Source of the DNA: Bacteroidales bacterium
GTDB taxonomy: Bacteria > Bacteroidota > Bacteroidia > Bacteroidales > CAIWKO01
Length of the DNA stretch: 32,903 nt
Assembly: GCA_035389045.1 (NCBI GenBank)
Contig: DAOORA010000053.1
Location: forward strand, 1 to 32,903
Reading direction: 5' to 3'
Shown here in pieces: positions 10,005-30,000 of the stretch (within the stretch, counting starts at the first letter, position 1; each line of letters begins with the position of its first letter). A model generated the notes under the pieces. The model was not told the origin of the DNA and did no database searches. It saw only the letters and a list, made by a program, of their open reading frames with translations. A program made the translations under genes and the position numbers.

Positions 10005-10067
10005 GAAGTCAGAAGCCGGAAGCCGAAAGTAGGAGGCCGAAAGCCGAAAGCCGGAAGTTAGAATTGA
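10005..10067 (+). repeat. Heptamer tandem repeat, nine degenerate units (GAAGCCG/AAAGCCG)
   Basis: gaagtca gaagccg gaagccg aaagtag gaggccg aaagccg aaagccg gaagtta gaattga. Confidence 0.75.
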
Positions 10068-15265: not shown

Positions 15266-16201
15266 TTAAACATAGTATTTCACCGCCTCTTTAACCTTTT
15301 TATCAAGCTCAATGATAACATCACTTTCAGAGGTTTGAATTTTATTTTTACTTGCCTCTTTTATGAGGTTTCTCAAATCAAATGCCTGCTTTTTGGTTAA
15401 TTCACCTTTGGCCTGAGCCTCGGCAATTCTTTTATAAAATTCAAGTTCACCGCCTTGCTCATGGATCAGCAACAAAAGAGCCTGAGTTTTTAATTGTTCT
15501 TTGGTTTTTATCATGCTGTAATCAATTATTTTTGTTTCTCTGAGCTTGTTTATGTTCTTATACTGCTCATACCATCGGTTAATGATATTCATGTAAAATA
15601 TCTCATCATACAACATCTCAGCTCTCAATTCTGGCATATTGAATTGTGAAAGTAACCTGCCTGTAAATCTCATCTCATACCTTACTACATATCTGTTTTG
15701 ATACATCACCGGCACCGGCAAACCTTTATCAATATAATCAGCAACCTTGTTGTAAAAAACTAACTGCTTGTTATTGCCATTGTAATATAAACCTTTATCC
15801 TGTGGCAACCTTTTGAAATATTGCAGAGTGCCTAAGTGATTATAATATACATCTGGCTCAAACCTCATGATAAAATTCTGTGCTAAATCAATTCTGTTAA
15901 TACTTGCCTTGTACATCGGTAAACTCAATAAATCACTCAATTTTTCAAAGGCTCTTTTTGTATCACCTCTGGTTAATGTTTGAAAATTCTCACCAAAATA
16001 CCACTTACATAAACTACTTTCATAAACAGTAACTCTGTTTTTAGATACTTTCACTTTCAAACCATCAATGTAACCGCCTGCATATTTGTTACCATCATGA
16101 GTGCCATATTTCACATTTTGCAATTTGCATGGCACCTCAGCAAGTAAATCAATGTTACCGGCCTGATCTCTGTTTAAAACCATATCTAAATTATCATACA
16201 T
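15266..16201 (-). CDS. Phage/plasmid replication initiator (gene II/X, Rep_trans-like rolling-circle type)
   Basis: MYD start at 16201; SLCKWYFGEN, NRIDLAQN, LVFYNK (candidate catalytic Tyr) and VVRYEMRF motifs. Confidence 0.75.
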   Translation of the reverse strand: MYDNLDMVLNRDQAGNIDLLAEVPCKLQNVKYGTHDGNKYAGGYIDGLKVKVSKNRVTVYESSLCKWYFGENFQTLTRGDTKRAFEKLSDLLSLPMYKASINRIDLAQNFIMRFEPDVYYNHLGTLQYFKRLPQDKGLYYNGNNKQLVFYNKVADYIDKGLPVPVMYQNRYVVRYEMRFTGRLLSQFNMPELRAEMLYDEIFYMNIINRWYEQYKNINKLRETKIIDYSMIKTKEQLKTQALLLLIHEQGGELEFYKRIAEAQAKGELTKKQAFDLRNLIKEASKNKIQTSESDVIIELDKKVKEAVKYYV

Positions 16202-16306
16202 GGTTACTGAATTGGTAACTGAAAACAGGTTAATATAGAAAACAGGCAAAAGAGTGCCGGCACATCACCGGCACCCTGTTCATTTTGGTTACTGAATTGG
16301 TAACTG
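16201..16306. repeat. Candidate replication origin: 21-bp direct repeats flanking a GC-rich hairpin
   Basis: TGGTTACTGAATTGGTAACTG at 16201-16221 and 16286-16306; hairpin GTGCCGG-cacatca-CCGGCAC at 16254-16274. Confidence 0.6.
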
Positions 16307-16738
16307 TTTTGCATTTTTTCTCAGTGTTTCAATTTCATTTTGTAACTCACCATCACACAATAAAAAATACAGGTTTCTTTTGTTGTTTCTCTGGCCTCTG
16401 GCGACAAATATTTCAATTATGGTATAATCCTCACTAAACATCAAAATAATGCCATCAGAGGTGCCATTTACATCACCATAAGCAAAAGGCAAGGTAACAT
16501 CTGGAACAAACACAGAGCTTATATTTTTGCCCTTAGAAATACATTTCTCTGCTTGCCTCTTTACATGGCTGTTAAAGTTTGCCGGCACATCACCATAATA
16601 AAAAAACTGTTCACCTTTTTTGTTGCTCAAAATAATCTCAAAAGGCTCATATTTGCCTGTGGAGGCTGTAATATCAAACCTGTACTTACTTTTGCTCTCT
16701 GGCAAGTGTACACCCTTGTAATAATCGGTTAAAATCAC
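16289..16738 (-). CDS. Hypothetical protein, translationally coupled to xis
   Basis: 149-aa ORF; GTG start overlaps the xis TGA (GTGA at 16735-16738). Confidence 0.7.
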   Translation of the reverse strand: MILTDYYKGVHLPESKSKYRFDITASTGKYEPFEIILSNKKGEQFFYYGDVPANFNSHVKRQAEKCISKGKNISSVFVPDVTLPFAYGDVNGTSDGIILMFSEDYTIIEIFVARGQRNNKRNLYFLLCDGELQNEIETLRKNAKQLPIQ

Positions 16739-17058
16739 CTGGCACCCCCTCTCTGATTAAGTGTTACATAAGTGGAGGCCTGCTCATCAATTTCTGAGGC
16801 CGGTGTGATCCGGTTTCTTAGTAACCATTTTTCAAGCTCGGCACGATCAAAATAAATCATTTTTCCATCTGGCTTGTAATGTGGCACCTTGCCTGAGGCT
16901 GTGAGCTTGTACATGAAACTCTTTTTTTTGCCACTGTAATCACAGGCCTCATCAAAGGTTAAAACTGTTTTTGTTGCTGTGAGTAAGGCCTCAATGTTAA
17001 CGAGCTTCTGCTCAATGTTAACGAGCCTCTGCTCAATACTTATACTTTCATTTACCAT
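16735..17058 (-). CDS. Excisionase / HTH_17 DNA-binding protein
   Basis: KTVLTFDEACDYSG.KKSFMYKLTASGKVPHYKPDGKMIYFDRAELEKWLLRN. Confidence 0.9.
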   Translation of the reverse strand: MVNESISIEQRLVNIEQKLVNIEALLTATKTVLTFDEACDYSGKKKSFMYKLTASGKVPHYKPDGKMIYFDRAELEKWLLRNRITPASEIDEQASTYVTLNQRGGAR

Positions 17059-17249
17059 ATTAGTAATTTTAAAAATTAATAAATATGATTTTGCAAAATC
17101 TGTTATTGTTTAAACATTGACAAATTTCTGCAATAAAAGAAACTAAGGTAAAAAACGGTATTATTACCTATGTGTGTGTGCTTAGAAAATTAAGGCTTTT
17201 GGAGTTGCAAGCGGTATTGCAAGCGGTATTTTTTTACTCAAAAACGGTA

Positions 17250-18419
17250 TTAATCGGCTGAGGTTATAAAGTGAAAATAACCGCTGATTTTGATTTTTTT
17301 TCTATAACTCGGCTTGCTTTGCTGTGAAATATCAATTTTATAACGACTTTCAAAGAAATTGCTATAATCAGAAAAATCTAATTTTTTACCGGTGATCTTT
17401 TTTTTGAAATAACTATTATTATCTAATATCATGATAAATGCAACAAGCTCAATTTTACTTTTTAACCATGTACCCTGCTCATCAAAATACTTACCATCAA
17501 TTAATCTTTGCTCATAATCTAAAAATGTATTGATATTAGTATCTAATATTATCTTTTTTAAAGTTTCTGAAACAAAGAGAGTGCCGGTGCTTTTACTTGC
17601 TGAGGTTGTTTGTTGTTTGTGGTTAGTTAATTCTCTGGTTAATTTTTCAAGCTCAGGTTTTATGATGTTATTAAAACTCATCTCAATTTCATGATTAATT
17701 TCTGAGTGTGTTGGTTTCTTTTCAATTTCTAAAAAATTACTTTTATTTTTTCTCTGATCTAAAACATAATTTAAAATTAAAGCATCATTTTTTTCAATCA
17801 TTTTTTTTGTAACATCTGGCACACCATTAACAAGAGGCATAATACTACAATACTCTCTGATTTTAAGTATTATAAAATCACACTCTTTAATATTTTGCTC
17901 ATCTGAAATTTTATCGGCCTGAGCTATGCAACTATTAACATACAATCTTTTTTTATCATTATTATCAAGTTTCAAGTAATGAAAAATATCAAATATAAAA
18001 TTATTCCTATCACCTTTTTTAATCTCGGTTTCAATATCATGAATTACTTTAATCTGCTTATCAAAAAAACTCTTATTAATATGCCTGTTTATTTTAAAAT
18101 CTATCAATGGTATTTCTGTTTTATCTAAATCAAGCGGTATCTTATTGCCCTGCTCATCATGGCCATAAGTTTGATTTTCATAAATCACCTCACTTTTACC
18201 ATCTGGCCATGTAACATTAATCAACTTGCCATAAACAATGTTTTTATACCACTCAATATACTTGTTAATCACCGTTTCTAATTGCTCAAAAATCTCAGAA
18301 TTGAGCTTATAATGCTCAATAATTATATTCAAATAATAATTAACAAAATCACTCTCATTTAAAGAGAGTGCCTCAAATACAAACCTTTCATAATCTTTGG
18401 TTATTAGTAATTTGCTCAT
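17250..18419 (-). CDS. Hypothetical protein between int and xis
   Basis: 389-aa AT-rich ORF starting 6 nt after the int stop; no recognisable motif. Confidence 0.7.
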   Translation of the reverse strand: MSKLLITKDYERFVFEALSLNESDFVNYYLNIIIEHYKLNSEIFEQLETVINKYIEWYKNIVYGKLINVTWPDGKSEVIYENQTYGHDEQGNKIPLDLDKTEIPLIDFKINRHINKSFFDKQIKVIHDIETEIKKGDRNNFIFDIFHYLKLDNNDKKRLYVNSCIAQADKISDEQNIKECDFIILKIREYCSIMPLVNGVPDVTKKMIEKNDALILNYVLDQRKNKSNFLEIEKKPTHSEINHEIEMSFNNIIKPELEKLTRELTNHKQQTTSASKSTGTLFVSETLKKIILDTNINTFLDYEQRLIDGKYFDEQGTWLKSKIELVAFIMILDNNSYFKKKITGKKLDFSDYSNFFESRYKIDISQQSKPSYRKKIKISGYFHFITSAD

Positions 18420-18425
18420 ATCTTT

Positions 18426-19514
18426 TTATAAATTAATTTCTGGCAACTTGTTTACCGCCTCTTTGCCTCTCTTACCTATGTAATGTAAATATTTATCAGT
18501 GTGTTTAATACTTGCATGGCCTAATAACCCGGACACTGTTTTCACATCGGCACCGGCAACCTCACTATCAAGCAAATTAACCGCAAAACTGTGCCGGCCA
18601 CAATGCCATGTGATATGTTTTTCAATACCGGCATTTTTTACCCACACCCTCAAATCTTTTAAACAGGCTGTATGGCTCGGCAATTTAAAAATTAACTCAT
18701 CTGGCTTGCCTCTCTCACCTATTAGCTTAATAGCTGTATTATTCAATGGTATTGATAAACTTGCACTCTCAGAATTGTTTTTTGTTTTTCTCTGCACAAA
18801 AGAGAGCTTATTATTATGAATATTTTGCCATTTGATTAATCTCACATCACACCATCTCAGGCCAGTATGTAAACAAAATAAAAATGCACGCCTTACATCA
18901 TTATTGCCACAATGAGCCTGAGCAAGTAACTGAATTTCATCAATGGTTAAAACTTGTTTTTTTAACCCCTCATCTTTGGTGTTTATTATGCCTTTGGTAA
19001 AATCTTTTTTCAAAATATTCTCATCATGTGCCTTGCTTATTACTCTTTTGAACTTGGTGAAATAATTACAAATTGTTTCACCATTTACCGCTGTTTGCAA
19101 ATATTCTCTGTATTGCCGGCACAAATCACCATCAATAAACTTTGCATTGATACTACCATCAAAACCTTTGGTTTTTATAAACTCTTTGAAATGATGTAAT
19201 GAATATTTTACAATTCTCTTATCTCTGTGGCTGTAATCATCAGCATACTTGTTATAATATGCAATAAAATCAATGTTCTTTTTAAAGGCCGGTGTGTAAT
19301 TATACTCATCTGCACTCAGTTCAAGCTCTCTGTTTGCTCTAATAGTTTCGGCAAGTTTTAAATTTTCTTTGTTTTTTTCAGCCTCAGCCGGTGTTTTGGC
19401 TCTTACCAAATGTATATTTAAAAATTCATAGTGCCTCTCGCCATTGTGGCAAATGATTAAAAACAGGCTTTTTTTACCGCTTGCACCGTTTCTCTTTTTT
19501 AAAACTACACCCAT
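18426..19514 (-). CDS. Site-specific tyrosine integrase (arm-binding, SAM-like and catalytic domains)
   Basis: TGLRWCD (R), HCGRHSFA (HxxR), LGHASIKHTDKY (H/Y); N-terminal KKSLFL.I...GER.YEFL arm-binding domain. Confidence 0.95.
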   Translation of the reverse strand: MGVVLKKRNGASGKKSLFLIICHNGERHYEFLNIHLVRAKTPAEAEKNKENLKLAETIRANRELELSADEYNYTPAFKKNIDFIAYYNKYADDYSHRDKRIVKYSLHHFKEFIKTKGFDGSINAKFIDGDLCRQYREYLQTAVNGETICNYFTKFKRVISKAHDENILKKDFTKGIINTKDEGLKKQVLTIDEIQLLAQAHCGNNDVRRAFLFCLHTGLRWCDVRLIKWQNIHNNKLSFVQRKTKNNSESASLSIPLNNTAIKLIGERGKPDELIFKLPSHTACLKDLRVWVKNAGIEKHITWHCGRHSFAVNLLDSEVAGADVKTVSGLLGHASIKHTDKYLHYIGKRGKEAVNKLPEINL

Positions 19515-19603
19515 GCTACTAATTTTTTACTTTATTTATACCTTTGTTGCCTTTGATTAACAAAGATAAACATAGTTTTTAAATTAGTAGCATTTTAGTA
19601 GCA
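19514..19603. promoter_or_regulatory. int promoter and putative arm-type sites, right end of element 1
   Basis: Minus-strand TATCTTTG at 19561-19568; TAGTAGCA at 19585 and 19596 (11-bp period); inverted TGCTACTA at 19514-19521. Confidence 0.6.
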
Positions 19604-21355
19604 TAAATTATCATAAAAAGGTAAAATAAAGGAAAATATATTTATCTTTGTGGAGGTTAAAATACTGTTTTTATTGATTTTATAAGTATTATGTTTTACT
19701 TTATTAATAGGTTGTAATAATGTCCCCGCTACTGACACGGACTTTTCGGTTTTTTTACTGGAAAGTCCGTTTTCTTTTATCCCAAAATCATTTGAAATAC
19801 AGCGAATTAACTTAAAAAAACTGTTGTAATCCTTGGTTAGATATTTCCTTTTTTCCGTGTCCAAGACCAAACCATCAGGAAAAATCAATTTTTGCAACCG
19901 CTTTTTTGCATCGAGTGGCACGCCAACCCATATTTTACTGATGTTTTGAAATAAAGAAACGACATTTTTTATTTTATTTTTTTGGTTAGATATTTTTTTT
20001 GAGGATGTTCCAATTTTCTCCTGAGTTGCCAAAATTTCATCCGAAACCTTTTTGGAAAATTTATCATAAAGCTCTTTTGACAATTTCCCATATGCAAATC
20101 TTTCTTCCATATCTTCCTTCGTCTTGTATTGTTCATTCAGCTTTGCCTTGAGCAAAACTTCCTCTTCCCTTTTTTCATTGTATTTTGCATCAAACATCTT
20201 GTTTAGCTGATCTCTGAATAGCGGCCCATTTTTTTCAGGTATCGAAAATCCATTTAATAAATCAACAAACAGTTCGTTTGCTCCCTTCCCTTTGGCTCTT
20301 ACTGTTTGGCTTGCATTCATACAGACGCCCTTACATCTTGGGCAACAATAATAATGTACCTTTTTCTTCTTGACTTCATAGCCCGAAAGCTTTTTACCGC
20401 AATGCGGGCACAACAAAGTCCCCATCAAAGGCCTATGTTCATTCCCTTTATCAATGACGTATCCGTTGTGGTTTAAATCCAGCATTTTCTGAACTTTCAG
20501 GAATTCATCTTCTGTCACCATTTGCGCCCAATTGCCTTTTACTGGTTCCGGCAGCATCCTGTTTACACTAATTCCACAATAAAAAGGATTCCGCCACATG
20601 GCAGATAATGATTGCTTGTTTATTTTCAGCCCCCAGCAATCAAGTTTTTGCCTGATTGAAGTATCGGTATAACCTTGCAGTTTTAAATTCCAAGCTTTTT
20701 TCAGCAGCAAACCCTCCTCATTAATGATAATTTCCTGCCTGCCTTTTATCAAGTTAACATCCTTGACCCTTGTACCATAATGGCTATAACCTCTCGGTGA
20801 ATGACCAAGCCAATTGCCCTGCTTTAGAAATTCTATCATGCCCGGTTTGGTTATATCCAATCTGTCGAGGTTATCTTTACGTGCTGCCAGCAACTTATCA
20901 TAAATCTCTATCTTTCCTCTTTCGGTTTCCGTAGAGGCTCCTGTTGAAGCTTCAATCAGGTGAACCCTGTAATTATTAATCAAGGTTGTAAGCAAGGCTA
21001 TTGCATCGCCACCTGTCCGTGAGAACCTGTTTATCTTATAGACCAATATGGCAAAAGGTTTTACTTTCATGGTCTTTACCTTTTCCAACAACCGCTGAAA
21101 CTCTTTCCGCGACATATCATCAGAGGCGCTCTCATAAGTATAACCAAATTCTTCGAGAATGTTATAATTCTTTTGAGCGGAAAATCTTTTAATAGCATTC
21201 GCCTGATTTGACAGACTGAAGTTATCAAACTGGTCTTTTGAAGACACCCTTGTGTACAATAATACATAGTTATTATTGTTGAAAGCTGTCGTATCGTTTT
21301 TGGGCTTCATGAAGCCCCTGAAACGCTCAATATTACTGGTTTTCATAATATTCAA
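19595..21355 (-). CDS. Large serine recombinase (resolvase + recombinase + Zn-ribbon/coiled coil)
   Basis: YTRVSSKDQ catalytic Ser, ESAS...RKEFQ, INRFSR, GNWLGHSPRGY, NPFYCG, CPHCG...YYCCPRC; C-terminus reads across the att site. Confidence 0.93.
   Translation of the reverse strand: MNIMKTSNIERFRGFMKPKNDTTAFNNNNYVLLYTRVSSKDQFDNFSLSNQANAIKRFSAQKNYNILEEFGYTYESASDDMSRKEFQRLLEKVKTMKVKPFAILVYKINRFSRTGGDAIALLTTLINNYRVHLIEASTGASTETERGKIEIYDKLLAARKDNLDRLDITKPGMIEFLKQGNWLGHSPRGYSHYGTRVKDVNLIKGRQEIIINEEGLLLKKAWNLKLQGYTDTSIRQKLDCWGLKINKQSLSAMWRNPFYCGISVNRMLPEPVKGNWAQMVTEDEFLKVQKMLDLNHNGYVIDKGNEHRPLMGTLLCPHCGKKLSGYEVKKKKVHYYCCPRCKGVCMNASQTVRAKGKGANELFVDLLNGFSIPEKNGPLFRDQLNKMFDAKYNEKREEEVLLKAKLNEQYKTKEDMEERFAYGKLSKELYDKFSKKVSDEILATQEKIGTSSKKISNQKNKIKNVVSLFQNISKIWVGVPLDAKKRLQKLIFPDGLVLDTEKRKYLTKDYNSFFKLIRCISNDFGIKENGLSSKKTEKSVSVAGTLLQPINKVKHNTYKINKNSILTSTKINIFSFILPFYDNLCY
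19737..19778 (+). terminator. Intrinsic terminator just inside the left end of element 2
   Basis: ACGGACTTTTCGGT / ACTGGAAAGTCCGT 14-bp stem (two G-U pairs) followed by TTTCTTTT. Confidence 0.65.
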
Positions 21356-21497
21356 AAATTATGGATGAACATTGATAAATATTATCTGCAAGTATATCCA
21401 ACTCTTCGTCGGTTAAACTTTCAAATTCTTTGTATTTTCTTATTTCTTCTGGTGTAAGTTTTATTTCATTTTCGTGAACATCATTTTTGTTTGACAT
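21333..21497 (-). CDS. Small acidic protein overlapping the recombinase start (candidate directionality factor)
   Basis: MSNKND...KLTPEEIRKYKEFESLTDEELDILADNIY; 3' end overlaps the recombinase start; function inferred from position only. Confidence 0.6.
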   Translation of the reverse strand: MSNKNDVHENEIKLTPEEIRKYKEFESLTDEELDILADNIYQCSSIIFEYYENQ

Positions 21498-21575
21498 TGG
21501 TTTGGTAATGCAACATACCGCCAAATTGTTTTATGGTGGGTACGCCGTATAATATAATATATAAGTAAGAACATC

Positions 21576-22547
21576 CTACTTTTTTATTATTTCTTTTACA
21601 ACAAACTCAACTGAGGTTATTTTACCGTAATGCTGTTTTTCATTCATCTCGCAATAAGGATATTTTAGCTTTACTTTCTTTTTCCATTTGTGATATTCAT
21701 CTGGCTTATATTGCATTTTCATTTTTCCTGAAAGCATGGTCATATCCTTGTCTTTTTTGATCACTATTTCCTGAAAATCTTCTTTTTTCATAAATGCAAG
21801 CAGCTGGTTTTCTTTTTCGGTAAGATACATGCAGCTTGCGGAATACTTCTGTTTTTCTTTATCATTTAAAAACTCATAATACAACTTTGTTATTGAAAAA
21901 TAAACGTGGGTTTCATAGAAAAACATTTTTCGTTTGCTGTCAAACTCTAAAAGCTCATCTAAATAAGGTATTATCTGGTCTTTTTTTATTAGTATTCCGA
22001 ATTCTTGCTTATAGTCCATTGATGACAAAAGAAGTATTTCAAATAAATTGAATTTAATATGCTTATAAAGCTCCTCAAAAACGGTATCGGAGTTTATCAT
22101 AGATAATAATGTTTCCTTTTCTTTATCATTCAGTGTCGAGTTTTTGATCTCTAAAATTGACTTTTTGTAACGCTCGACAAGCAACCTGCTTTCAGTACCT
22201 GCTTTTGCATCATTTAATATTATTTGTAATTCATTCGGGTCAACCTCTGCAAACAATTTCTTTTTTACTGCTACAATAATTTCATAATGGATGCCGAAGT
22301 CTCGCATTTCTTCAACACATTTCAGCCATAAAAACTCTATAAATGACAAAATTTCCCATTTACGTTTTATATTTTTTGTTTCAGGACTCAAAACCAATCC
22401 ACTTGTTTTCCAATGGTTATATACTCTCGCTGAAACACCTGTTTCTTTTAACGGGATTTGTTTTGTGTTGAGGTTAAACAGAAAATCTATTTTTTCTGAG
22501 GTGAAAGGGCTATTATATGCTTTAACCAACATGTTTTCAAATTTCAT
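21576..22547 (-). CDS. MerR-like helix-turn-helix protein
   Basis: LKETGVSARVYNHWKTSGLV...RKW..LSFIEFLWLKCVEEMRDFGI; minus-strand TACATTTG box at 22592-22599. Confidence 0.7.
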   Translation of the reverse strand: MKFENMLVKAYNSPFTSEKIDFLFNLNTKQIPLKETGVSARVYNHWKTSGLVLSPETKNIKRKWEILSFIEFLWLKCVEEMRDFGIHYEIIVAVKKKLFAEVDPNELQIILNDAKAGTESRLLVERYKKSILEIKNSTLNDKEKETLLSMINSDTVFEELYKHIKFNLFEILLLSSMDYKQEFGILIKKDQIIPYLDELLEFDSKRKMFFYETHVYFSITKLYYEFLNDKEKQKYSASCMYLTEKENQLLAFMKKEDFQEIVIKKDKDMTMLSGKMKMQYKPDEYHKWKKKVKLKYPYCEMNEKQHYGKITSVEFVVKEIIKK

Positions 22548-23039
22548 TACCCGGATTTTTAAATTTTTAAGTTAAAAGCGTTTTTATCGCACAAATGTAA
22601 TATAAAATTTATATTTTACAACAAACGAACAAAAATATTTTTTTATTATTAAGAATAATCAGAACCGGAGCTAATACCAATAGCCAAAAATGAAAAATTT
22701 GAAATTTCTGGCGGCCAAAGTTATTATTACCATCAAAAAGGGGTTCATTCCAAGTTTGATCAAGGCGAAAATGGTAACTGATTATAAAAAATGTTCTTTG
22801 TACCAACCAAAATCGTTTCAGACAACCAAAATAAACCTCACATCAACATAAAATAGCTCAAAATAATGGTTCCCTCTTCAAAATCAACTCAAACATACCT
22901 GCAAATCACCTGAAATTTTCTCTGATTACCTGTAATATGGTTTTAGGAAATGAATAATGAGCATTTTTAGGTCGCAAAAGCCCTACTTTGGCCATTTACA
23001 TTTCAATTTCAGGTCTATTGAATTAATCATGAGGGCGAA

Positions 23040-23140
23040 ATGTACAAAAATGATAGGGTTTTGTATAAATATGTACAAAAATTGACAGGGTTTTGTACAA
23101 AAATGTCCATAATCGTCCAATTTTGTACATTTTCGTCCAT
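23040..23140. repeat. Helically phased TGTACA/YGTCCA array in the 0.8-kb intergenic region
   Basis: Hexamers at 23041, 23062, 23072, 23094, 23104, 23114, 23124, 23134; ~31-bp tandem duplication 23040-23102. Confidence 0.7.
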
Positions 23141-23371: not shown

Positions 23372-26300
23372 ATGATTAAGCCCATTATTGTCAGCCCCAG
23401 AAAATCGCTGAACAAAGCTTTCTTGAAGCTTAAACCAACCCGGACAGAGATTGAACTCTTTAAAATTAATCTTTCAACCCTGCTCGACAGAATAAATGAA
23501 AACGAATCAGAAGAATTTCATAAAAACCTTGTTGCCGATTTTCTTAAAGGCACATATTACGGTGCAGATCACTTTATCAATACGAAAGGACGCAATGATC
23601 TTGTTATACATTCTGGGAAAGATGCTAAAACAAATGTCGGTGTTATTATTGAAGCAAAAAGCCCCGCCAACAAAACGGAAATGCTTAAAAAAAACAATAT
23701 CAACCAAAAGGCATTTCACGAACTGATACTTTATTACCTCCGCGAACGGATTACTGCAAAAAACATCGAAGTAAAACATCTGGTCGCTTCCAACATCTTC
23801 GAATGGTATATTTTCGATGCGCGTGATTTTGACAAGCTTTTTGCACAAAACAAGCAACTGGTTAAACAATTTACCGATTTTGAAGAAAAACGACTTGCCA
23901 GCACCGACACTGCATTTTTCTATAAAGAGATCGCCGAAAAATTTGTTTCGTCACTTGATGCTGAAATAAGCTATACTTATTTCGACATCCGTGACTACGA
24001 AATGCCCCTGAAAAACCTTGACAAAAAAGACGACAATATTCTTATTGCGCTTTACAAACTTTTATCTCCACAGCATTTGCTGAAACAGGCATTTCTGAAC
24101 GACAGCAACAGCCTTGATAAAACATTTTACAGCGAACTTTTGCACCTTATCGGGCTGGAGGAAACCAAAGAGGGTAGTAAAAAACTAATCGGTCGCAAAG
24201 CCACCAACAAAAACAGCGGCTCTTTACTGGAAAATGCCATTATTCAACTGGATACGCTTGATAAAATATCAAGGATTTCAAATCCTTCACAATTCGGTAA
24301 TAACACCAACGAACGGCTTTATAATGTATCGCTCGAATTGGTTATTACCTGGGTTAATCGAATTTTGTTCCTGAAATTACTCGAAGCCCAATTGGTAAGC
24401 TATCATAAAGGCGACAAGAATTATGAATTTCTGAATACCGGAAAAATTAAAGACTTTGACGAGCTCAACAGTTTGTTTTTTCGTGTGCTTGCCCGAAAAC
24501 CTGATGAACGCAGCGAGGATGTGGCAAAAGCATTTTCCACGGTTCCCTATCTGAACAGTTCGTTGTTTGAACCCACAGAACTGGAGCATCAGGCCATATT
24601 CATCAGCAGTCTGCGCGACGAATCCAAAATCCCTATACTGTCAAATACTGTTTTGAAAGATGCTACAGGAAAAAAGCGAAGCGGTGAACTGAATACCATA
24701 GAATATATTTTTGAATTTCTAAATGCCTACGATTTTAGCAGCGAAGGTTCGGAAGATATACAGGAAGAAAACAAAACCCTGATAAACGCTTCTGTGTTGG
24801 GCTTGATCTTTGAAAAAATCAATGGTTATAAAGACGGTTCGTTTTTTACCCCCGGATTTATTACCATGTATATGTGCCGTGAAACTATTCGCCGGGCAGT
24901 TTTACAAAAATTCAACCACACCTTCCCCCTCCCTGGAGGGGGTCAGGGGGTGGGTTCCTCCCCCCTCCTCGGAGGGGGTCAGGGGGTGGGTTCCTCCTGG
25001 AAATCCAAAATAACACCCTACCGCTCCGACCTTCCCGAAAAGGCCCGGAAATTACGCAACAACCCAACCGTCAGCGAACAAACTCTCTGGAAAGCGCTCA
25101 AGGGTAAAAACCAATTCGGCTATGATTTTCACAGGCAAAAACCTCTTGACAGCTATATTGCCGACTTTTATTGCCGCGATCTGAAACTTGTCATTGAATT
25201 GGACGGTGCAACACATTTATCAGAAGATGTCATAAACAGAGACAAAACAAAGGAACAAAGCCTCAATGACCTTGGAATAAATGTACTTCGTTTCCCTGAC
25301 GCACTGGTGATCAACGATACATCGCAGGTTTTAAAGCAAATTGAAATTTATATTGACGCATTTCTTAAAAAAAACAGCACACTTTACAGGGATGGCTGCA
25401 CTCCGGATTTATCCTATAAAACAGCGTTGAATCCGTTATCGGGGAAGGGGTTGGTTTTTGGAAGTTTGAGCAATTTAGAAGGTTTAGAGGACACACCCCC
25501 CGACCCCCTCTCAAGAGGGGGAGACACTCCCCCCGGCCCCCTCTCAAGAGGGGGAGAGGAAGAGGGAAGGTACAAGAGCCTGGACGATGTGTATAATGCC
25601 ATTGGTAGAGATTTCACTAAAGAGGAAGCCAACAGCATTATTAACTCTTTGAAAATTTGCGATCCTGCCGTTGGTTCCGGTCATTTTTTAGTTTCAGCCC
25701 TGAATGAAATCATTGCTATAAAAAGCGAGTTAAAAATTCTATGCGACAGCAACGGTAAAACCTTGCGGGATTATTCTATTGAAGTGGTAAATGACGAACT
25801 GGCGATCACTGACGAGGATGGCAAACCCTTTGAATACAATCCGAACAATGCAGAAAGCCGCAGGGTGCAGGAAACCCTTTTCCGAGAGAAACAAACGATC
25901 ATTGAAAACTGCCTTTTCGGTGTAGATATCAATCCTAATTCTGTAAAAATTTGCCGCTTGCGCCTGTGGATCGAGCTGTTGAAAAACGCTTTCTACAAAT
26001 TTCCCCTCCTGGGAGGGGGCCAGGGGGTGGGTTCCTCCCCCCTCCCGGGAGGGGGCAAGGGGTCCTCCCCCCTCTCTGGATGGGGCCAGGGGGTGGGCTC
26101 TCCCGAACTGGAAACCCTGCCCAATATTGATATCAATATCAAATGTGGAAACTCCCTGATAAGCCGTTATGCTTTGGATTCCGACATTAAGGCTGCACTA
26201 AAAAAAAGCAAATGGACTGTGGACAGTTACCGCCTTGCTGTGATGACATACCGCAACGCACAAAGCAAAGACGAAAAGCGGGAAATGGAAAAACTGATTG

Positions 26301-27760
26301 GCCAGATAAAAAATGACTTTGAAAGCGAAGTGGCCATAAACGACAAACGGGTGATCCGACTGCGCAAGCTTAAGGCAGACCTTTTGAATCTCACTACGCA
26401 AACCAGCCTGTTTGAAAAAAGCAAAGCTGAAAAAGCAGATTGGAACAAACAGGTTAAATCACTAACTACTGATATTCAAAAACGCGAAACCGAACTTGAA
26501 GAAATTAAAAACAACAAAATTTACGAAAATGCTTTTGAATGGCGTTTTGAGTTTCCCGAAGTTTTGAATGATGATGGGGATTTTGTGGGGTTTGATGTGG
26601 TGATTGGGAATCCGCCGTATGGTGTTTCTATTAAAGGACAAGAAAGAGATTTTCTTATTAATGATATTGGGAAAGTCCCAGATTATGAAATCTATTATTG
26701 GTTCATCAATAAAGCAAATTTAATTTTAAGAAAAGCAGGACAATTCTCTTTTATAATTCCCAATACTATACTTTTCAACCTATTTGCTGAGAACTACCGG
26801 TTGGCAATGTTTGATAATTGGCATTTTGAAGATGTGTTGGATTGTACAGAAATTCCCATTTTTACTGATGCGACTGTACGGAATGTAATATTATTACTTA
26901 AAAAGGATAAGAATGGTGATAAAATATTATATCGAAACACTAAAGATATTTCAAATTTTTTTGAGATTGTTGGTAGACCTAAGTTAACTATTATGAAGGA
27001 TTTTATCGAAAATAATAATCAGAACTGGGGTTTATTATTCAAATTAGATGAAAAAGTTCTTTTAATTATTTCGAAATTGAAAGCAAATTCGGTAAGTTTA
27101 AATTCAATTTTCACAGAAACAAGCCAAGGATTAATAGCTTATGATAAATATAAAGGTCAGAGTGAAGAAATAATAAAAAATCGAGTTTATCATTCATTTG
27201 AGAAAAAGAATAATGAATATAAGCCATGGCTGTATGGTGAAGATGTTACCAGATATAATATTAGATGGAATGGGAAAGAGTATATTAATTATTGTTTAGG
27301 TATAGCGAATCCACGAGACCCAAAATATTTTGTCGGGAAGCGGATATTAATTCGGGAAATTACTAACCCTCAAATTTACGCATCCATTACAGAAGAAGAA
27401 TTATATAATGATCCTGCAATAATTATCATAAAAGAAAATCCTGCAATTTTTAATTTAGAGTTATTACTTGGGATTTTAAATTCAAAACTGGCAACATTTT
27501 ATCATTTCAATTCTTCACCAAAAGCATCAAAAGGAGCATTCCCAAAAATTCTCGTTTATGATGTTAATAATTTCCCTCTGCCAAAAAACATTGACAGAAT
27601 AATAGAAAATAAAATTACAATTTTGGCAACGGAAATTCTAACGATAAAAAAAGCCACCCCTACCGCTGACACCACCGAATTAGAATCCGAGATAGACCGG
27701 CTTGTATATGAGTTGTATGGGTTGACGGAGGAGGAGATAAAGATTGTGGAGGGAAGATAA
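23372..27760 (+). CDS. Type IIG restriction-modification enzyme (Eco57I-like, N6-adenine MTase with C-terminal TRD) with an in-frame DUF559 insertion
   Basis: N-terminal nuclease ND..IIEAK; PYLNSSLFE; LGLIFEKINGYKDGSFFTP; motif I ICDPAVGSGHFL; FGVDINP; motif IV VIGNPPY; C-terminal LLGILNSKL and EIDRLVYELYGLTEEEIKIVE. Confidence 0.93.
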   Translation: MIKPIIVSPRKSLNKAFLKLKPTRTEIELFKINLSTLLDRINENESEEFHKNLVADFLKGTYYGADHFINTKGRNDLVIHSGKDAKTNVGVIIEAKSPANKTEMLKKNNINQKAFHELILYYLRERITAKNIEVKHLVASNIFEWYIFDARDFDKLFAQNKQLVKQFTDFEEKRLASTDTAFFYKEIAEKFVSSLDAEISYTYFDIRDYEMPLKNLDKKDDNILIALYKLLSPQHLLKQAFLNDSNSLDKTFYSELLHLIGLEETKEGSKKLIGRKATNKNSGSLLENAIIQLDTLDKISRISNPSQFGNNTNERLYNVSLELVITWVNRILFLKLLEAQLVSYHKGDKNYEFLNTGKIKDFDELNSLFFRVLARKPDERSEDVAKAFSTVPYLNSSLFEPTELEHQAIFISSLRDESKIPILSNTVLKDATGKKRSGELNTIEYIFEFLNAYDFSSEGSEDIQEENKTLINASVLGLIFEKINGYKDGSFFTPGFITMYMCRETIRRAVLQKFNHTFPLPGGGQGVGSSPLLGGGQGVGSSWKSKITPYRSDLPEKARKLRNNPTVSEQTLWKALKGKNQFGYDFHRQKPLDSYIADFYCRDLKLVIELDGATHLSEDVINRDKTKEQSLNDLGINVLRFPDALVINDTSQVLKQIEIYIDAFLKKNSTLYRDGCTPDLSYKTALNPLSGKGLVFGSLSNLEGLEDTPPDPLSRGGDTPPGPLSRGGEEEGRYKSLDDVYNAIGRDFTKEEANSIINSLKICDPAVGSGHFLVSALNEIIAIKSELKILCDSNGKTLRDYSIEVVNDELAITDEDGKPFEYNPNNAESRRVQETLFREKQTIIENCLFGVDINPNSVKICRLRLWIELLKNAFYKFPLLGGGQGVGSSPLPGGGKGSSPLSGWGQGVGSPELETLPNIDINIKCGNSLISRYALDSDIKAALKKSKWTVDSYRLAVMTYRNAQSKDEKREMEKLIGQIKNDFESEVAINDKRVIRLRKLKADLLNLTTQTSLFEKSKAEKADWNKQVKSLTTDIQKRETELEEIKNNKIYENAFEWRFEFPEVLNDDGDFVGFDVVIGNPPYGVSIKGQERDFLINDIGKVPDYEIYYWFINKANLILRKAGQFSFIIPNTILFNLFAENYRLAMFDNWHFEDVLDCTEIPIFTDATVRNVILLLKKDKNGDKILYRNTKDISNFFEIVGRPKLTIMKDFIENNNQNWGLLFKLDEKVLLIISKLKANSVSLNSIFTETSQGLIAYDKYKGQSEEIIKNRVYHSFEKKNNEYKPWLYGEDVTRYNIRWNGKEYINYCLGIANPRDPKYFVGKRILIREITNPQIYASITEEELYNDPAIIIIKENPAIFNLELLLGILNSKLATFYHFNSSPKASKGAFPKILVYDVNNFPLPKNIDRIIENKITILATEILTIKKATPTADTTELESEIDRLVYELYGLTEEEIKIVEGR
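24925..24996 (+). repeat. Two 36-bp GC-rich palindromic units, in frame (PLxGGGQGVGSS)
   Basis: CCCCCTCC-NN-GGAGGGGG-TCAGGGGGTGGGTTCCTC x2. Confidence 0.9.
25010..25372 (+). other. DUF559 / Vsr-like endonuclease domain embedded in the RM gene
   Basis: KARKLRNNPTVSEQTLWKALK..QFGYDFHRQKPLDSYIADFYCRDLKLVIELDGATH...RDKTKEQSLNDLGINVLRF; boundaries approximate. Confidence 0.88.
25490..25555 (-). repeat. Two 33-bp palindromic units, inverted relative to 24925-24996 (DTPPxPLSRGG)
   Basis: GACACNCCCCCCG-NCCCCCTCT-CA-AGAGGGGGA x2; reverse complement CCCCCTCTTGAGAGGGGGTCGGGGGGTG matches the left units. Confidence 0.88.
26002..26100 (+). repeat. Three further palindromic units, in frame, with no nuclease
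   Basis: Encodes FPLLGGGQGVGSSPLPGGGKGSSPLSGWGQGVGS between KNAFYK and ELETLPNIDINIKCGNSL. Confidence 0.88.
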
Positions 27761-27776
27761 AATTATATATAATACT

Positions 27777-28751
27777 ATGGGAACATTAAAAACAGATAAA
27801 TGCTTTATTACAGACCTACCCGCATTCAATTTTGATCAAGGGATTTCAGTCTATGAATACACAATTGATATAAATGGAAAAAAGGTGGCTTTATACTTTA
27901 ATCAAGATGCTGAGAATTGGAATAAACACGATGTTTTTTTATCCAAAAAACACATTTTTGCAGGAGCTTTAATTAATGGGAAATTACTCGATGAATCTAA
28001 GGTTTTCCCTGTTATTACGGCAGACTTTTTATTTAATAGAATTAAAGAAATGGTTTATCCTTCTTCTCCAAAAGAAAAGTTAGATAACCTATTTAAAACG
28101 TTAATTTCATTTCAAAATAGTGAGGGTGATAGTATCTTCCTCCAAAGACTTGTACCTGATCCAATATTTTATTTTGGGCATTATTTTAGATCACGAGAAG
28201 AATGTATGTTTTATTTTAAAACTCTAATTGAACAGAAATTAATAAATGCAAAATTAAATATTGATCCTCAACATGGCCATAATAATATTCTTTATGCTAA
28301 TATTACATTTAAAGGGCTCAATTACTATCTGGATTTGATTGACAATGGGAAACTTTCTAACAAATGTTTTGTGGCCATGTCATTCACTCCTGAAAATCAA
28401 TTGCTAGTCAATATTCGCAATTCAATCAAAGAAGCTATTGAAATCACTGGATTTAAACCAATTCTAATAGATGAGGTTCACTACGATTGCGAAAAAACAA
28501 TTAATGATGCTATAATTGCGAACCTAAAAGAATGCAAATTCTGTATAGCTGATTTTACGGAACAAAAAGATGGGGTATATTTTGAAAGTGGGTTCGCATT
28601 AGGTCAGGGGAAATCGGTGATTTACACTTGCAGGCAAGAAGATTTTGAAAAATCACATTTTGACACGAACCATTTTCCGCATATCATTTACAATAACCCA
28701 GATGAATTAAAACAAAAGCTTATTGATAAAATTAACGCATGGATAAAATAA
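27777..28751 (+). CDS. Protein with C-terminal nucleoside 2-deoxyribosyltransferase/TIR-like domain (defence-associated type)
   Basis: KCFVAMSF...GFKPILID...INDAIIANLKECKFCIADFT.QKDGVYFESGFALGQGKSVIYTC...HFDTNHF; preceded by a wHTH-like segment ending ITFKGL; ATG at 27777. Confidence 0.75.
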   Translation: MGTLKTDKCFITDLPAFNFDQGISVYEYTIDINGKKVALYFNQDAENWNKHDVFLSKKHIFAGALINGKLLDESKVFPVITADFLFNRIKEMVYPSSPKEKLDNLFKTLISFQNSEGDSIFLQRLVPDPIFYFGHYFRSREECMFYFKTLIEQKLINAKLNIDPQHGHNNILYANITFKGLNYYLDLIDNGKLSNKCFVAMSFTPENQLLVNIRNSIKEAIEITGFKPILIDEVHYDCEKTINDAIIANLKECKFCIADFTEQKDGVYFESGFALGQGKSVIYTCRQEDFEKSHFDTNHFPHIIYNNPDELKQKLIDKINAWIK

Positions 28752-28772
28752 AGGATTAAATAGCTTAAAATT

Positions 28773-29684
28773 ATGTCCAAAGACAACGCAAAAACTATTT
28801 TCGTTATAGATTTCGACAAGATTAATGATCATATTGCATGGTTAAATAGCAACAGGTGCAAACATCATGATTATAAATCTTACCCTGCCAAGCTCCTAAA
28901 AGTTGATTTCCATGCTTGTAATTTTCTTAAACCTTATCATATTGCTCCACTGGCGTGCCTGATTTATGAATACCAGCAGAAAGGGTTTGTTATAAAACTT
29001 ATCAATATTCCTGCGGCTATTAAGGACTATTTTGATGCCTTTAATTTTCAGCAATTTTGCAAGCAAGAACCCTATAACCACTTTCCCACACCCTTAGATT
29101 CCAAAATACTTCCATTATGGCGAATTGAACAAACCGCCATAAGTGTTTACCCCGCAGAAGCCCAACGGTATTTTGAAAATCTGCATTTCGACAGCAAAAG
29201 TTTATTTTCATTGAGCAGCTCATTGGCGGAACTGATGAATAATGTTTTTGACCATTCAGAATCAAAAATCCCGGGTTATACCTTTACACAATATAACACA
29301 CGAAATAATGAAATCACATCTTGTGTCTGTGATTTCGGAATTGGAATACCACGAAAGGTCAATAAATATCTTTCGGAAAATAAACTTGAAACTATTGATA
29401 ACGTTTCAGCCCTGAAAAAAGCCCTTGAATATAAATTTTCCACATTATCAAAACCGCACAACAGGGGTTATGGGTGGGATAATGTTTTTTCCATAGTTAA
29501 AGGTCTCAAAAGTAAAATTCTTATCATCAGCAATAACGTACTATATAAAAACGATTTTAATAAAGCGCCTATAACTTCTTTACTTAACAATAATTTCCCG
29601 GGAACAATTATCGTTATTTACCTAAATACACTTAATCTGCCACAAAAAGAAGAAGAAATTACAGACGAATTAATCATTTTATGA
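28773..29684 (+). CDS. STAS-like + GHKL/HATPase (anti-sigma-kinase-like) protein
   Basis: N box LAELMNNVFDHS, G1 VCDFGIGIP, G2 NRGYGW, G3 FPGT; no transmembrane or His-phosphotransfer domain. Confidence 0.78.
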   Translation: MSKDNAKTIFVIDFDKINDHIAWLNSNRCKHHDYKSYPAKLLKVDFHACNFLKPYHIAPLACLIYEYQQKGFVIKLINIPAAIKDYFDAFNFQQFCKQEPYNHFPTPLDSKILPLWRIEQTAISVYPAEAQRYFENLHFDSKSLFSLSSSLAELMNNVFDHSESKIPGYTFTQYNTRNNEITSCVCDFGIGIPRKVNKYLSENKLETIDNVSALKKALEYKFSTLSKPHNRGYGWDNVFSIVKGLKSKILIISNNVLYKNDFNKAPITSLLNNNFPGTIIVIYLNTLNLPQKEEEITDELIIL

Positions 29685-29703
29685 GTATCTTTGCAGTAGA
29701 ATT

Positions 29704-30000
29704 ATGGATACATCAACAATAATAGTTAAAAATGTAGCTCCTGGCACACTTTCAAATGCTGACGGTGTTAGCCTGAAGATAGCTATTGAAAAAACTCTGT
29801 CAGACAATAATATTGCAATATTATCTTTTGCAGGTATCGATACCATTTCCACATCATTCTTAAATTCATCAATAGGCGAAATCGTTGACCAGTTTGGTTT
29901 GCAGGCGTTGAAAAACAGAATAAAAATTTCTCATTACACGCCTTCGCTTGCTGCGGTTATAAGCAAGTATGTTGGAGAACTCACTGCTTCGGTACACTGA
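29704..30000 (+). CDS. STAS-like protein (DUF4325 type)
   Basis: SNADG..L...I......AILSFAGIDTISTSFLNSSIGEIV. Confidence 0.8.
   Translation: MDTSTIIVKNVAPGTLSNADGVSLKIAIEKTLSDNNIAILSFAGIDTISTSFLNSSIGEIVDQFGLQALKNRIKISHYTPSLAAVISKYVGELTASVH

Follow-up and report, generated by a model that had tools for sequence, protein, structure and literature searches.

The DNA analysed here, called the window below, is an entire contig of 32,903 nucleotides (DAOORA010000053.1) from the 4.46-Mb draft genome (41% GC) of a Bacteroidales bacterium (assembly GCA_035389045.1). On its forward strand lies an intact gene for a Type IIG restriction-modification (RM) enzyme that holds, in frame, a DUF559 nuclease domain between inverted arrays of GC-rich hairpin repeats, together referred to as the cassette (Table 1). 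A preliminary description of the window had proposed the stretch 24920-25570 as a protein-invading mobile unit. Pfam analysis of the open reading frame (ORF) 23372-27760 revealed DUF7149, DUF7814, DUF559, MmeI_Mtase/Eco57I/N6_Mtase and TaqI_C in this order, and the methyltransferase motifs DPAVGSGHF and GNPPYG are present. The host protein unites the N-terminal nuclease region, the gamma-type N6-adenine methyltransferase and the C-terminal specificity domain of a Type IIG enzyme in a single chain. The insert lies between AVLQKFN and YKSLDDVY with the junctions HTF/PLPGGG and EEEGR/YKS, where the splice-junction residues of an intein are lacking. No Hint or intein family and no Y1_Tnp (PF01797) match was found by Pfam in the host ORF, and Rfam gave no family at gathering score but only sub-threshold hairpin look-alikes, so that an intron or ribozyme was rejected. 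With neither a Hint domain nor an Rfam family above threshold, nothing suggests that the insert is removed from the protein or the RNA.

Table 1. Features of the restriction-modification gene and its insert (window coordinates).
Feature	Position	Strand	Description	Basis
Host gene	23372..27760	+	1462-aa Type IIG restriction-modification enzyme, reading frame intact	ORF, translation, Pfam
Left terminal repeat array	24921..24992	+	2 x 36-bp units, read in frame as PLPGGGQGVGSS	motif scan, tandem repeats
DUF559 / Vsr-like PD-(D/E)XK nuclease domain	25010..25372	+	full length	Pfam PF04480, PDB matches, model
C-terminal cassette extension	25373..25490	+	degenerate repeat-like ALNPLSGKG, disordered in model	carrier alignment
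Right terminal repeat array	25491..25556	+	2 x 33-bp units, frame reading TPPDPLSRGG	motif scan, tandem repeats, folding
Carrier-type host flank	25571..25653	+	YKSLDDVYNAIGRDFTKEEANSIINSLK	protein comparison, DNA alignment of filled, solo and empty alleles
Site B (third cluster)	26001..26102	+	three solo units of 36, 30 and 36 bp, without nuclease	

Each left unit consists of a hairpin with an 8-bp C/G stem and a G-run tail directed inward (GTCAGGGGGTGGG). In the right units the tail CACCCCCCGA comes first and the hairpin CCCCCTCTCAAGAGGGGG second, with the complementary C-run preceding the hairpin; they are the reverse complement of the left family, and the tails point inward at both ends. 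The solo units at site B share repeat family and orientation with the left array. The palindrome CCCCCTC-N4-GAGGGGG (at most one mismatch) occurs seven times in the window, compared to zero copies in each of 100 dinucleotide-preserving shuffles, and all seven starts (24925, 24961, 25504, 25537, 26002, 26038 and 26068) are inside the host ORF. Tandem Repeats Finder reported the three clusters at 24921-24997 (period 36, 2.1 copies, 92% matches), 25490-25557 (period 33, 2.1 copies, 94% matches) and 26003-26104 (period 30, 3.0 copies, 73% matches). With unit spacings of 36, 33, 36 and 30 bp, all multiples of three, and a GC content that falls from 71-75% in the repeats to 42% in DUF559 and 37% in the remaining ORF, the sequence reads as the preliminary description had it with respect to bracketing, unit length and base composition. 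The repeats are also free of stop codons as claimed there, which carries less weight than it may seem, however, as the left and right clusters are open in five and the site-B cluster in all six of the six frames. Folding of the right units as DNA hairpins gave -7.2 to -7.4 kcal/mol (z -2.3 and -1.35 against shuffles); the values of the left units (z 0.24 and 0.30) are uninformative because any sequence of a C-run and a G-run folds. On the plus strand, 24921-24992 and 26001-26102 contain at least four close G-runs of 3-5 bases, and judging from the letters a G-quadruplex is conceivable there.

The nuclease domain matches PF04480 over residues 556-658 with an E-value of 4.8e-27 and 94.4 bits (curated cut-off 20.6) and exhibits the conserved motifs FHRQ, ADF and IELDGxxH. 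Among known structures it matches 3hrl (E 3.9e-15); its match to 3r3p, the catalytic domain of I-Bth0305I, is weak (E 0.029). Vsr, DUF559, DUF2726, 3hrl and 3r3p are placed in one group in a PD-(D/E)XK superfamily survey (PMC3424549). The peptide ALNPLSGKG in the extension behind the domain is the counterpart of EDSPLNPLTG conserved in other site-A carriers. Ratios of nonsynonymous to synonymous substitution (dN/dS) of 0.05-0.25 were obtained for embedded and stand-alone copies alike, from the subset of pairs with estimable dS, as dS is saturated in most. By these ratios the domain is under purifying selection, which together with the conserved motifs indirectly supports a nuclease activity. 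An AlphaFold model of residues 426-974 (alignment of 132 sequences) has a mean predicted local distance difference test (pLDDT) score of 60. Within it, the DUF559 fold is confident (80-95), and low values were obtained for the left repeats (~26), the spacer and right repeats (22-27) and site B (27-32). This fits a picture in which all three repeat segments are disordered tethers between host helices, in line with the earlier proposal that the insert is tolerated in protein loops.

To define empty sites, the best 120 of 7999 scored homologues were aligned. Although the window protein has the complete domain set of the MmeI/Eco57I-like Type IIG enzymes of the DUF7149 family, 100 of these 120 members are without DUF559 and about 1215 residues long. 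Sixteen hold the domain at site A, directly after QKFN, and four (P0005, P0014, P0081, P0116) at site B, between NAYY and ELETLPNIDINIK, the position of the three solo units in the window. The domains at site B belong to a different DUF559 lineage, 33-41% identical to those at site A. In the carriers all inserts are flanked by repeat-derived peptides, SPLERGFRGVS and TPLLRGAGGVS upstream and TPLNPLSRGDF downstream, which are translations of reverse complements. Solo repeats at site B were found in six of the 16 site-A carriers compared to one of the 100 alleles without DUF559 (Fisher p 1.7e-5, with kin not independent); they match the site-A repeat type in five of the six carriers, and the type is partly different in P0097 and P0100.

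In a host tree built from 1212 host-only columns the carriers are scattered, and seven of them are single tips among empty alleles. The host cores of P0022 (filled) and P0066 (empty) are 96% identical, those of P0014 (site B) and P0018 (empty) 91%, and those of P0003 (site A) and P0014 87%. Conversely, P0022 and P0093 share 90% identity in DUF559 but 68% in their hosts. On these values insert and host identities are incongruent, and universal carriage with a congruent phylogeny is not what the homologues display. In the window and in its relative P0002 (87% identical), the domain reaches only 53-59% identity with other site-A domains and is accompanied by a left-repeat type of its own, with nine left units in P0002 versus two in the window.

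Comparison of alleles at the DNA level was performed with 80 metagenome loci related to P0022, of which 76 were measurable at site A and 72 at site B. At site A, 66 loci have the modal anchor-to-anchor distance of 132 bp and seven have 144-162 bp without sequence of the repeat family; two are filled (L062, L077) and one contains a single hairpin (L027). At site B, 65 loci have the modal 36 bp, L074 has a DUF559 cassette, L077 a repeat array with three exact hairpins, and L027 one hairpin. Over 240 bp on each side the filled allele L077 and the empty allele L038 have 93-97% of their bases in common, but identity ends right after AACGAAGC following QKF and returns only about 70 bp past the insert. 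Over this stretch both site-A carriers and the solo allele L027 share a common diverged sequence with 15 extra bases. By this diverged shared flank, gain or loss proceeded via recombination with another allele, in which the flank was dragged along, and such a pattern is what homing leaves behind. The window flank (YKSLDDVYNAIG...) resembles that of other carriers and differs from that of empty alleles, and by this resemblance, on which the case of the window rests, it is likely a co-conversion tract. Further, site B of four alleles (L004/L012, L036, L080) holds unrelated palindromes, one of them a perfect palindrome of 30 bp; the site-B loop seems to collect several kinds of hairpin DNA.

The association of hairpins with DUF559 in other genomes was evaluated in 26 of 30 loci, those in which a motif located the domain. 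GC-rich hairpins were present on both sides in 20, on one side in five and on neither side in one. Within 300 bp of the domain their density is 4.2 per kb (66 in 15.6 kb), in comparison to 0.31 per kb farther away (16 in 50.9 kb). Read from the outside inwards, each end agrees with the inverted opposite end over about 30 bp and consists of a hairpin, 3-5 bases and a GGGGTGTG-type tail. The genome of the window itself contains no other DUF559 gene. An exact search with loops of 2-6 bases returned five palindromes there, all in the host gene, and a search allowing two substitutions returned eight, seven in the gene and one dissimilar site on contig C1; the tail motif does not occur elsewhere in this genome. 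A genome-wide family of repetitive extragenic palindromic (REP) sequences was rejected for this genome, as palindrome and tail are confined to one gene. The expectation that the repeat is enriched around DUF559 genes was thus borne out in other genomes, with no further copy in this one.

Among 70 distinct DUF559 domains the hairpin family follows the nuclease clade: CCCCTC-TTGA-GAGGGG accompanies the IIPYNP clade, CCCCTCC-N3-GGAGGGG the LPYNP..NLSE clade, CCCCCTT-YGAA-GGGGG the YNK.LKELARKLRKDSTKAEIR clade and CCCCTT-N5-AAGGGG the PYLK.RRISLRKNMTEAE clade, and most members of a basal DUF559 group are without hairpins. On the two sides of a cassette the hairpin loop always has opposite orientations. 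One genome (G104) contains four DUF559 clades, each with its own hairpin. This co-variation, together with the bracketing and the density around the domain, confirms that palindromes and DUF559 genes are associated elsewhere. Five carrier genomes have 4-32 copies each of CCCCTC-N4-GAGGGG and none of the reversed control. Hairpins outnumber DUF559 matches in four of them (10, 32, 14 and 19 versus 7, 7, 2 and 3), and G164 has four hairpins versus six matches. Additionally, G407 contains four inverted end pairs of about 150-180 bp without nuclease (L160-L163); each end of these miniatures is enlarged by an inner palindrome of about 30 bp, and one element lies in an open-frame stretch. In both the window cassette and L117 the two ends are of differing hairpin subtypes (TTGA-loop type and CC-NN-GG type), which on sequence grounds suggests recombination between cassettes.

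Solo repeats and nuclease-less miniatures would also be expected if the hairpin repeats were themselves the mobile agents, similar to REPs or miniature transposable elements with inverted repeats (MITEs), moved in trans, for example, by an HUH transposase of the IS200 or REP-associated tyrosine transposase (RAYT) type, with DUF559 as cargo or landing neighbour. The unrelated palindromes at site B, by which this loop would accept hairpins in general, point in the same direction, as do Y1_Tnp genes with 4-13 matches in each of the five repeat-bearing genomes tested; an argument from the absence of RAYT genes was dropped for the latter reason. We nevertheless regard this explanation as unlikely. 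The hairpin type tracks the DUF559 clade even inside one genome, and the ends bracket the domain in inverted orientation at fixed short distances. Two genomes, G207 and G215, are complete; their nine Y1_Tnp matches are all more than 50 kb away from every one of the 33 CCCCTC-N4-GAGGGG hairpins, whereas the best DUF559 match of each genome is directly bracketed by hairpins. Moreover, the GTAG/CGTC tags of RAYT-linked REPs, as given in PMC3733652, are absent from the ends.

Among longer proteins, a search using the window domain as query found 45, and one using a canonical site-A domain found 119. Besides metabolic enzymes (MetH, IspG, HisF, TrpF, PanC, ThiE, HemD and an amino-acid kinase) the hosts comprise UvrA, HsdS, RecQ, MmeI-family enzymes, RnpA, class I and class II aminoacyl-tRNA synthetases and QueG, the last with many clusters; DUF559 comes with repeat peptides in these hosts. 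Close relatives of the domain (E <= 1e-20) are present in 115 of 401 sampled genomes of the phylum, and 15 of the 150 matches listed for this sample lie in open frames of at least 400 residues. Pfam analysis of genome loci revealed internal inserts in UvrC, HsdR (two genomes), PheT, LeuS and four Type ISP enzymes, with the frame of one of these (L158) running off the contig end, as well as end fusions with QueG, HemF (two), HemD, FGase and an amino-acid kinase. In total, more than 20 unrelated protein families hold related cassettes in frame, which supports the proposal of a protein-invading mobile unit. Stand-alone copies occur between complete, unrelated genes in many genomes of the phylum, and no gene was split in the 28 stand-alone loci examined.

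No other end fusion is nearly as populated as QueG-DUF559, with about twenty protein clusters (P0207, P0210-P0213, P0215, P0216, P0218-P0220, P0222-P0227, P0230-P0232, P0238), some of 29-41 members; in the one locus examined (L147) DUF559 is at the N-terminus. In L120 a canonical Vsr gene (PF03852) adjoins the DUF559 cassette. Well-populated clusters of this kind are what one would expect if DUF559 and its hairpins served the host, for instance by Vsr-like nicking of mismatches or extruded hairpins, and if the in-frame copies were stable functional fusions, giving the enzyme of the window a second nuclease. The purifying selection on the domain, its conserved position between mutS and gntR in eleven loci and the large share of hosts acting on DNA or RNA (RM enzymes, UvrA, UvrC, RecQ, tRNA synthetases, RnpA, QueG) are in accordance with such a service. 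However, 100 of the best 120 orthologues work without the domain, near-identical alleles differ only by the cassette, and two DUF559 lineages are found at two sites of one enzyme family. MetH, IspG, HemD, HemF, HisF and PanC are unrelated to nucleic acids, and neither terminal inverted repeats nor co-converted flanks would be expected of a plain domain fusion. A role in service of the host is therefore improbable in our judgement, and the suggestion of a second nuclease for the RM enzyme found no support, with most orthologues lacking the domain and metabolic and housekeeping enzymes carrying it.

A single ancient insertion into Type IIG enzymes with vertical descent and many losses, the repeats being low-complexity linker DNA that changes by slippage, would explain why one host-tree clade of 11 proteins comprises ten site-A carriers and the site-B carrier P0116, why repeat copy number varies between the window and P0002, and why insert and host identities are weakly correlated (Spearman 0.34). 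The single-tip carriers among empty alleles do not agree with this, nor can deletion alone exactly restore a flank of the empty type. With related cassettes of like ends in unrelated genes and between genes, and with slippage leaving the inverted symmetry at the DNA level unexplained, we consider a single old insertion distinctly improbable. Finally, an artefact, be it a chimeric assembly or terminator hairpins lying by chance on both sides of a small gene, is hardly credible even for a contig of a draft assembly (135 contigs) with GC-rich repeats of the kind that break short-read assemblies and at which some contigs of other runs do stop, given that contigs of identical sequence from other studies run across both junctions and across site B, that dozens of independent records have the same architecture, and that both ends share about 30 bp including the tail, unlike a generic terminator.

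The spanning contigs just mentioned derive from runs of other studies and cover the left junction (24823-25015) and the right junction (25480-25642); one from another study spans the entire site-B cluster (25983-26153). The insert structure is therefore real. RNA-library contigs cover 24640-24914 and 25065-25529, for which DNA carry-over is possible.

Taken together, the results are probably best explained by a selfish nuclease cassette with cognate inverted ends. It would spread by gene conversion and, rarely, transposition, and be tolerated as an additional domain on tethers. Comparison of sequences carries this interpretation with regard to presence and absence of the cassette, the two sites, the shared flank tracts, the many hosts, the cognate ends, the derivatives and the purifying selection. 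The cassette is free of stop codons, and its repeats, open in nearly every frame, would encode disordered linkers rich in Gly, Pro and Ser; hence a protein could hold it in a surface loop, where translation would read through it and leave it as a tethered additional domain, comparable to an intein that never splices. Alleles gain or lose it by recombination that also converts about 70 bp of flank, as their comparison shows. The nuclease may nick or cut the empty target or the hairpin ends, whereupon repair would copy the cassette in (homing), so that movement between alleles would proceed by break-induced or recombination-mediated copying, and new sites might be seeded by rare end-mediated events. 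The wider proposal is put forward only tentatively and is given somewhat less than even weight: a new class of autonomous prokaryotic mobile element of about 0.5 kb, its sole gene encoding a Vsr-like PD-(D/E)XK nuclease, with cognate hairpin-plus-tail inverted repeats that leave almost every frame open and code for disordered linkers. Such an element could settle in surface loops, both of essential proteins (tRNA synthetases, UvrA/UvrC, MetH, IspG) and of restriction enzymes, homing like an intein without splicing.

Several observations weigh against the selfish cassette. That DUF559 makes the initiating cut and drives the movement, and which substrate it acts on, we infer from the comparison of sequences. 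No target-site duplication is evident by eye beside the ends in the loci shown, and the Y1_Tnp genes in all five genomes tested would permit mobilisation in trans. In-frame cases were ascertained via long proteins and open frames, and frame-breaking insertions were never counted as such. The incongruence of insert and host identities might be weakened if DUF559 were more conserved than the hosts. Further, the eleven stand-alone copies at one mutS-DUF559-gntR position, found in several genera of one family (L112, L114, L115, L116, L118, L119, L121, L122, L124, L126 with the gntR side only and L127 with the mutS side only), look like stable vertical inheritance, possibly with a host role linked to mismatch repair. 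The copies in G104 are only 41-57% identical to the query, divergent within the genome and without sign of recent bursts. The genome of the window, with neither repeat nor DUF559 beyond this gene, gives no sign of recent activity either, and none of the contigs in four runs skips the insert, hence no polymorphism of gain or loss was seen in this population.

The surroundings of the RM gene are in accordance with an arrival of the cassette inside its host gene. Upstream, the GC-poor region 15266-22547 encodes a Phage_CRI-type replication protein, a tyrosine integrase and a large serine recombinase and is probably an integrative element or defence island. From the integrase and recombinase genes and the low GC content it appears that the restriction gene arrived with an integrative element, the cassette already inside, which makes the cassette in this genome the passenger of a restriction gene gained by horizontal transfer. 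In the same genus and order, most DUF559 genes stand alone and fall into other clades, whose hairpins are of other types or missing, which indicates that the window cassette is not native to the lineage of its genome. Downstream, 27744-30000 contains a weak match to nucleoside 2-deoxyribosyltransferases (below the curated cut-off), a 303-residue protein without family and a DUF4325 (STAS-like) protein; these may be further defence genes. Two other tandem repeats were noted, one with a 32-bp period at 23038-23106 (2.2 copies, 86% matches), about 270 bp before the start of the restriction gene, and a GAAGCCG-like one of 7 bp/21 bp at 10006-10057.

We found no published description of such a cassette, including in the listed papers that mention DUF559, judged by title and abstract, with subscription journals and supplements outside this coverage. 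The findings suggest an undescribed kind of selfish DNA that persists in the finished protein. If this is true, a selfish element has a third way to live in a gene, by neither RNA nor protein splicing but as a domain on floppy tethers, and some of the large DUF559 family thereby gains a function and a lifestyle. This would also account for odd annotations as "very-short-patch-repair endonuclease" on methionine synthases, tRNA synthetases and restriction enzymes; in genome annotation such inserts should be treated as cassettes and not as fusion proteins. From the places where cassettes insert one could read off permissive loops in many enzymes, and the nuclease might prove specific for a sequence or structure, with recognition ends that are compact.

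Among known systems the cassette is closest in layout to REPtrons, to which it had initially been likened. Similar to these it consists of a single nuclease gene between inverted hairpin repeats with a short conserved tail, solo or paired repeats occur elsewhere in the genome, and enzyme and repeat co-vary. The likeness thus holds for the arrangement of nuclease and inverted palindromes, but the cassette is not a REPtron: its enzyme is a Vsr-like PD-(D/E)XK nuclease (DUF559) in place of an HUH Y1 transposase, its tail is a G-run (GGGGTGTG) in place of a GTAG/CGTC tag, its repeats number 4-32 per genome with none beyond the host gene here, and it is often translated in frame within other proteins. 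In the last respect it resembles Rickettsia palindromic elements (RPEs) and intragenic REPs, in-frame palindromes tolerated in unrelated and often essential genes according to PMC10969869 and PMC3733652; the latter describes REPs inside genes, many of them for replication and repair. In contrast to the cassette repeats, which bracket a nuclease domain and have no further copy in this genome, RPEs are without enzyme, about 100-150 bp long and present in many copies per genome.

With inteins and homing endonuclease genes the cassette shares the in-frame nuclease insert in conserved genes, the patchy occurrence at the same site and the co-converted flanks, and its domain is weakly similar to the Vsr-like homing endonuclease I-Bth0305I, as mentioned above. 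It differs in having neither a Hint or splicing domain nor intron RNA, and should therefore stay in the mature protein, and in its terminal inverted repeats, which homing endonuclease genes are without. MITEs and small insertion sequences likewise have terminal inverted repeats of about 30 bp, non-autonomous miniatures and many sites, but the cassette is without DDE, serine, tyrosine or HUH transposase, and no target-site duplication is evident by eye. The cassette thus combines the layout of a REPtron, the in-frame read-through of an RPE and the population pattern of a homing gene or intein, but departs from each in a defining feature, by the lack of an HUH enzyme and GTAG/CGTC tag, by its coding cargo and by the lack of a splicing domain.

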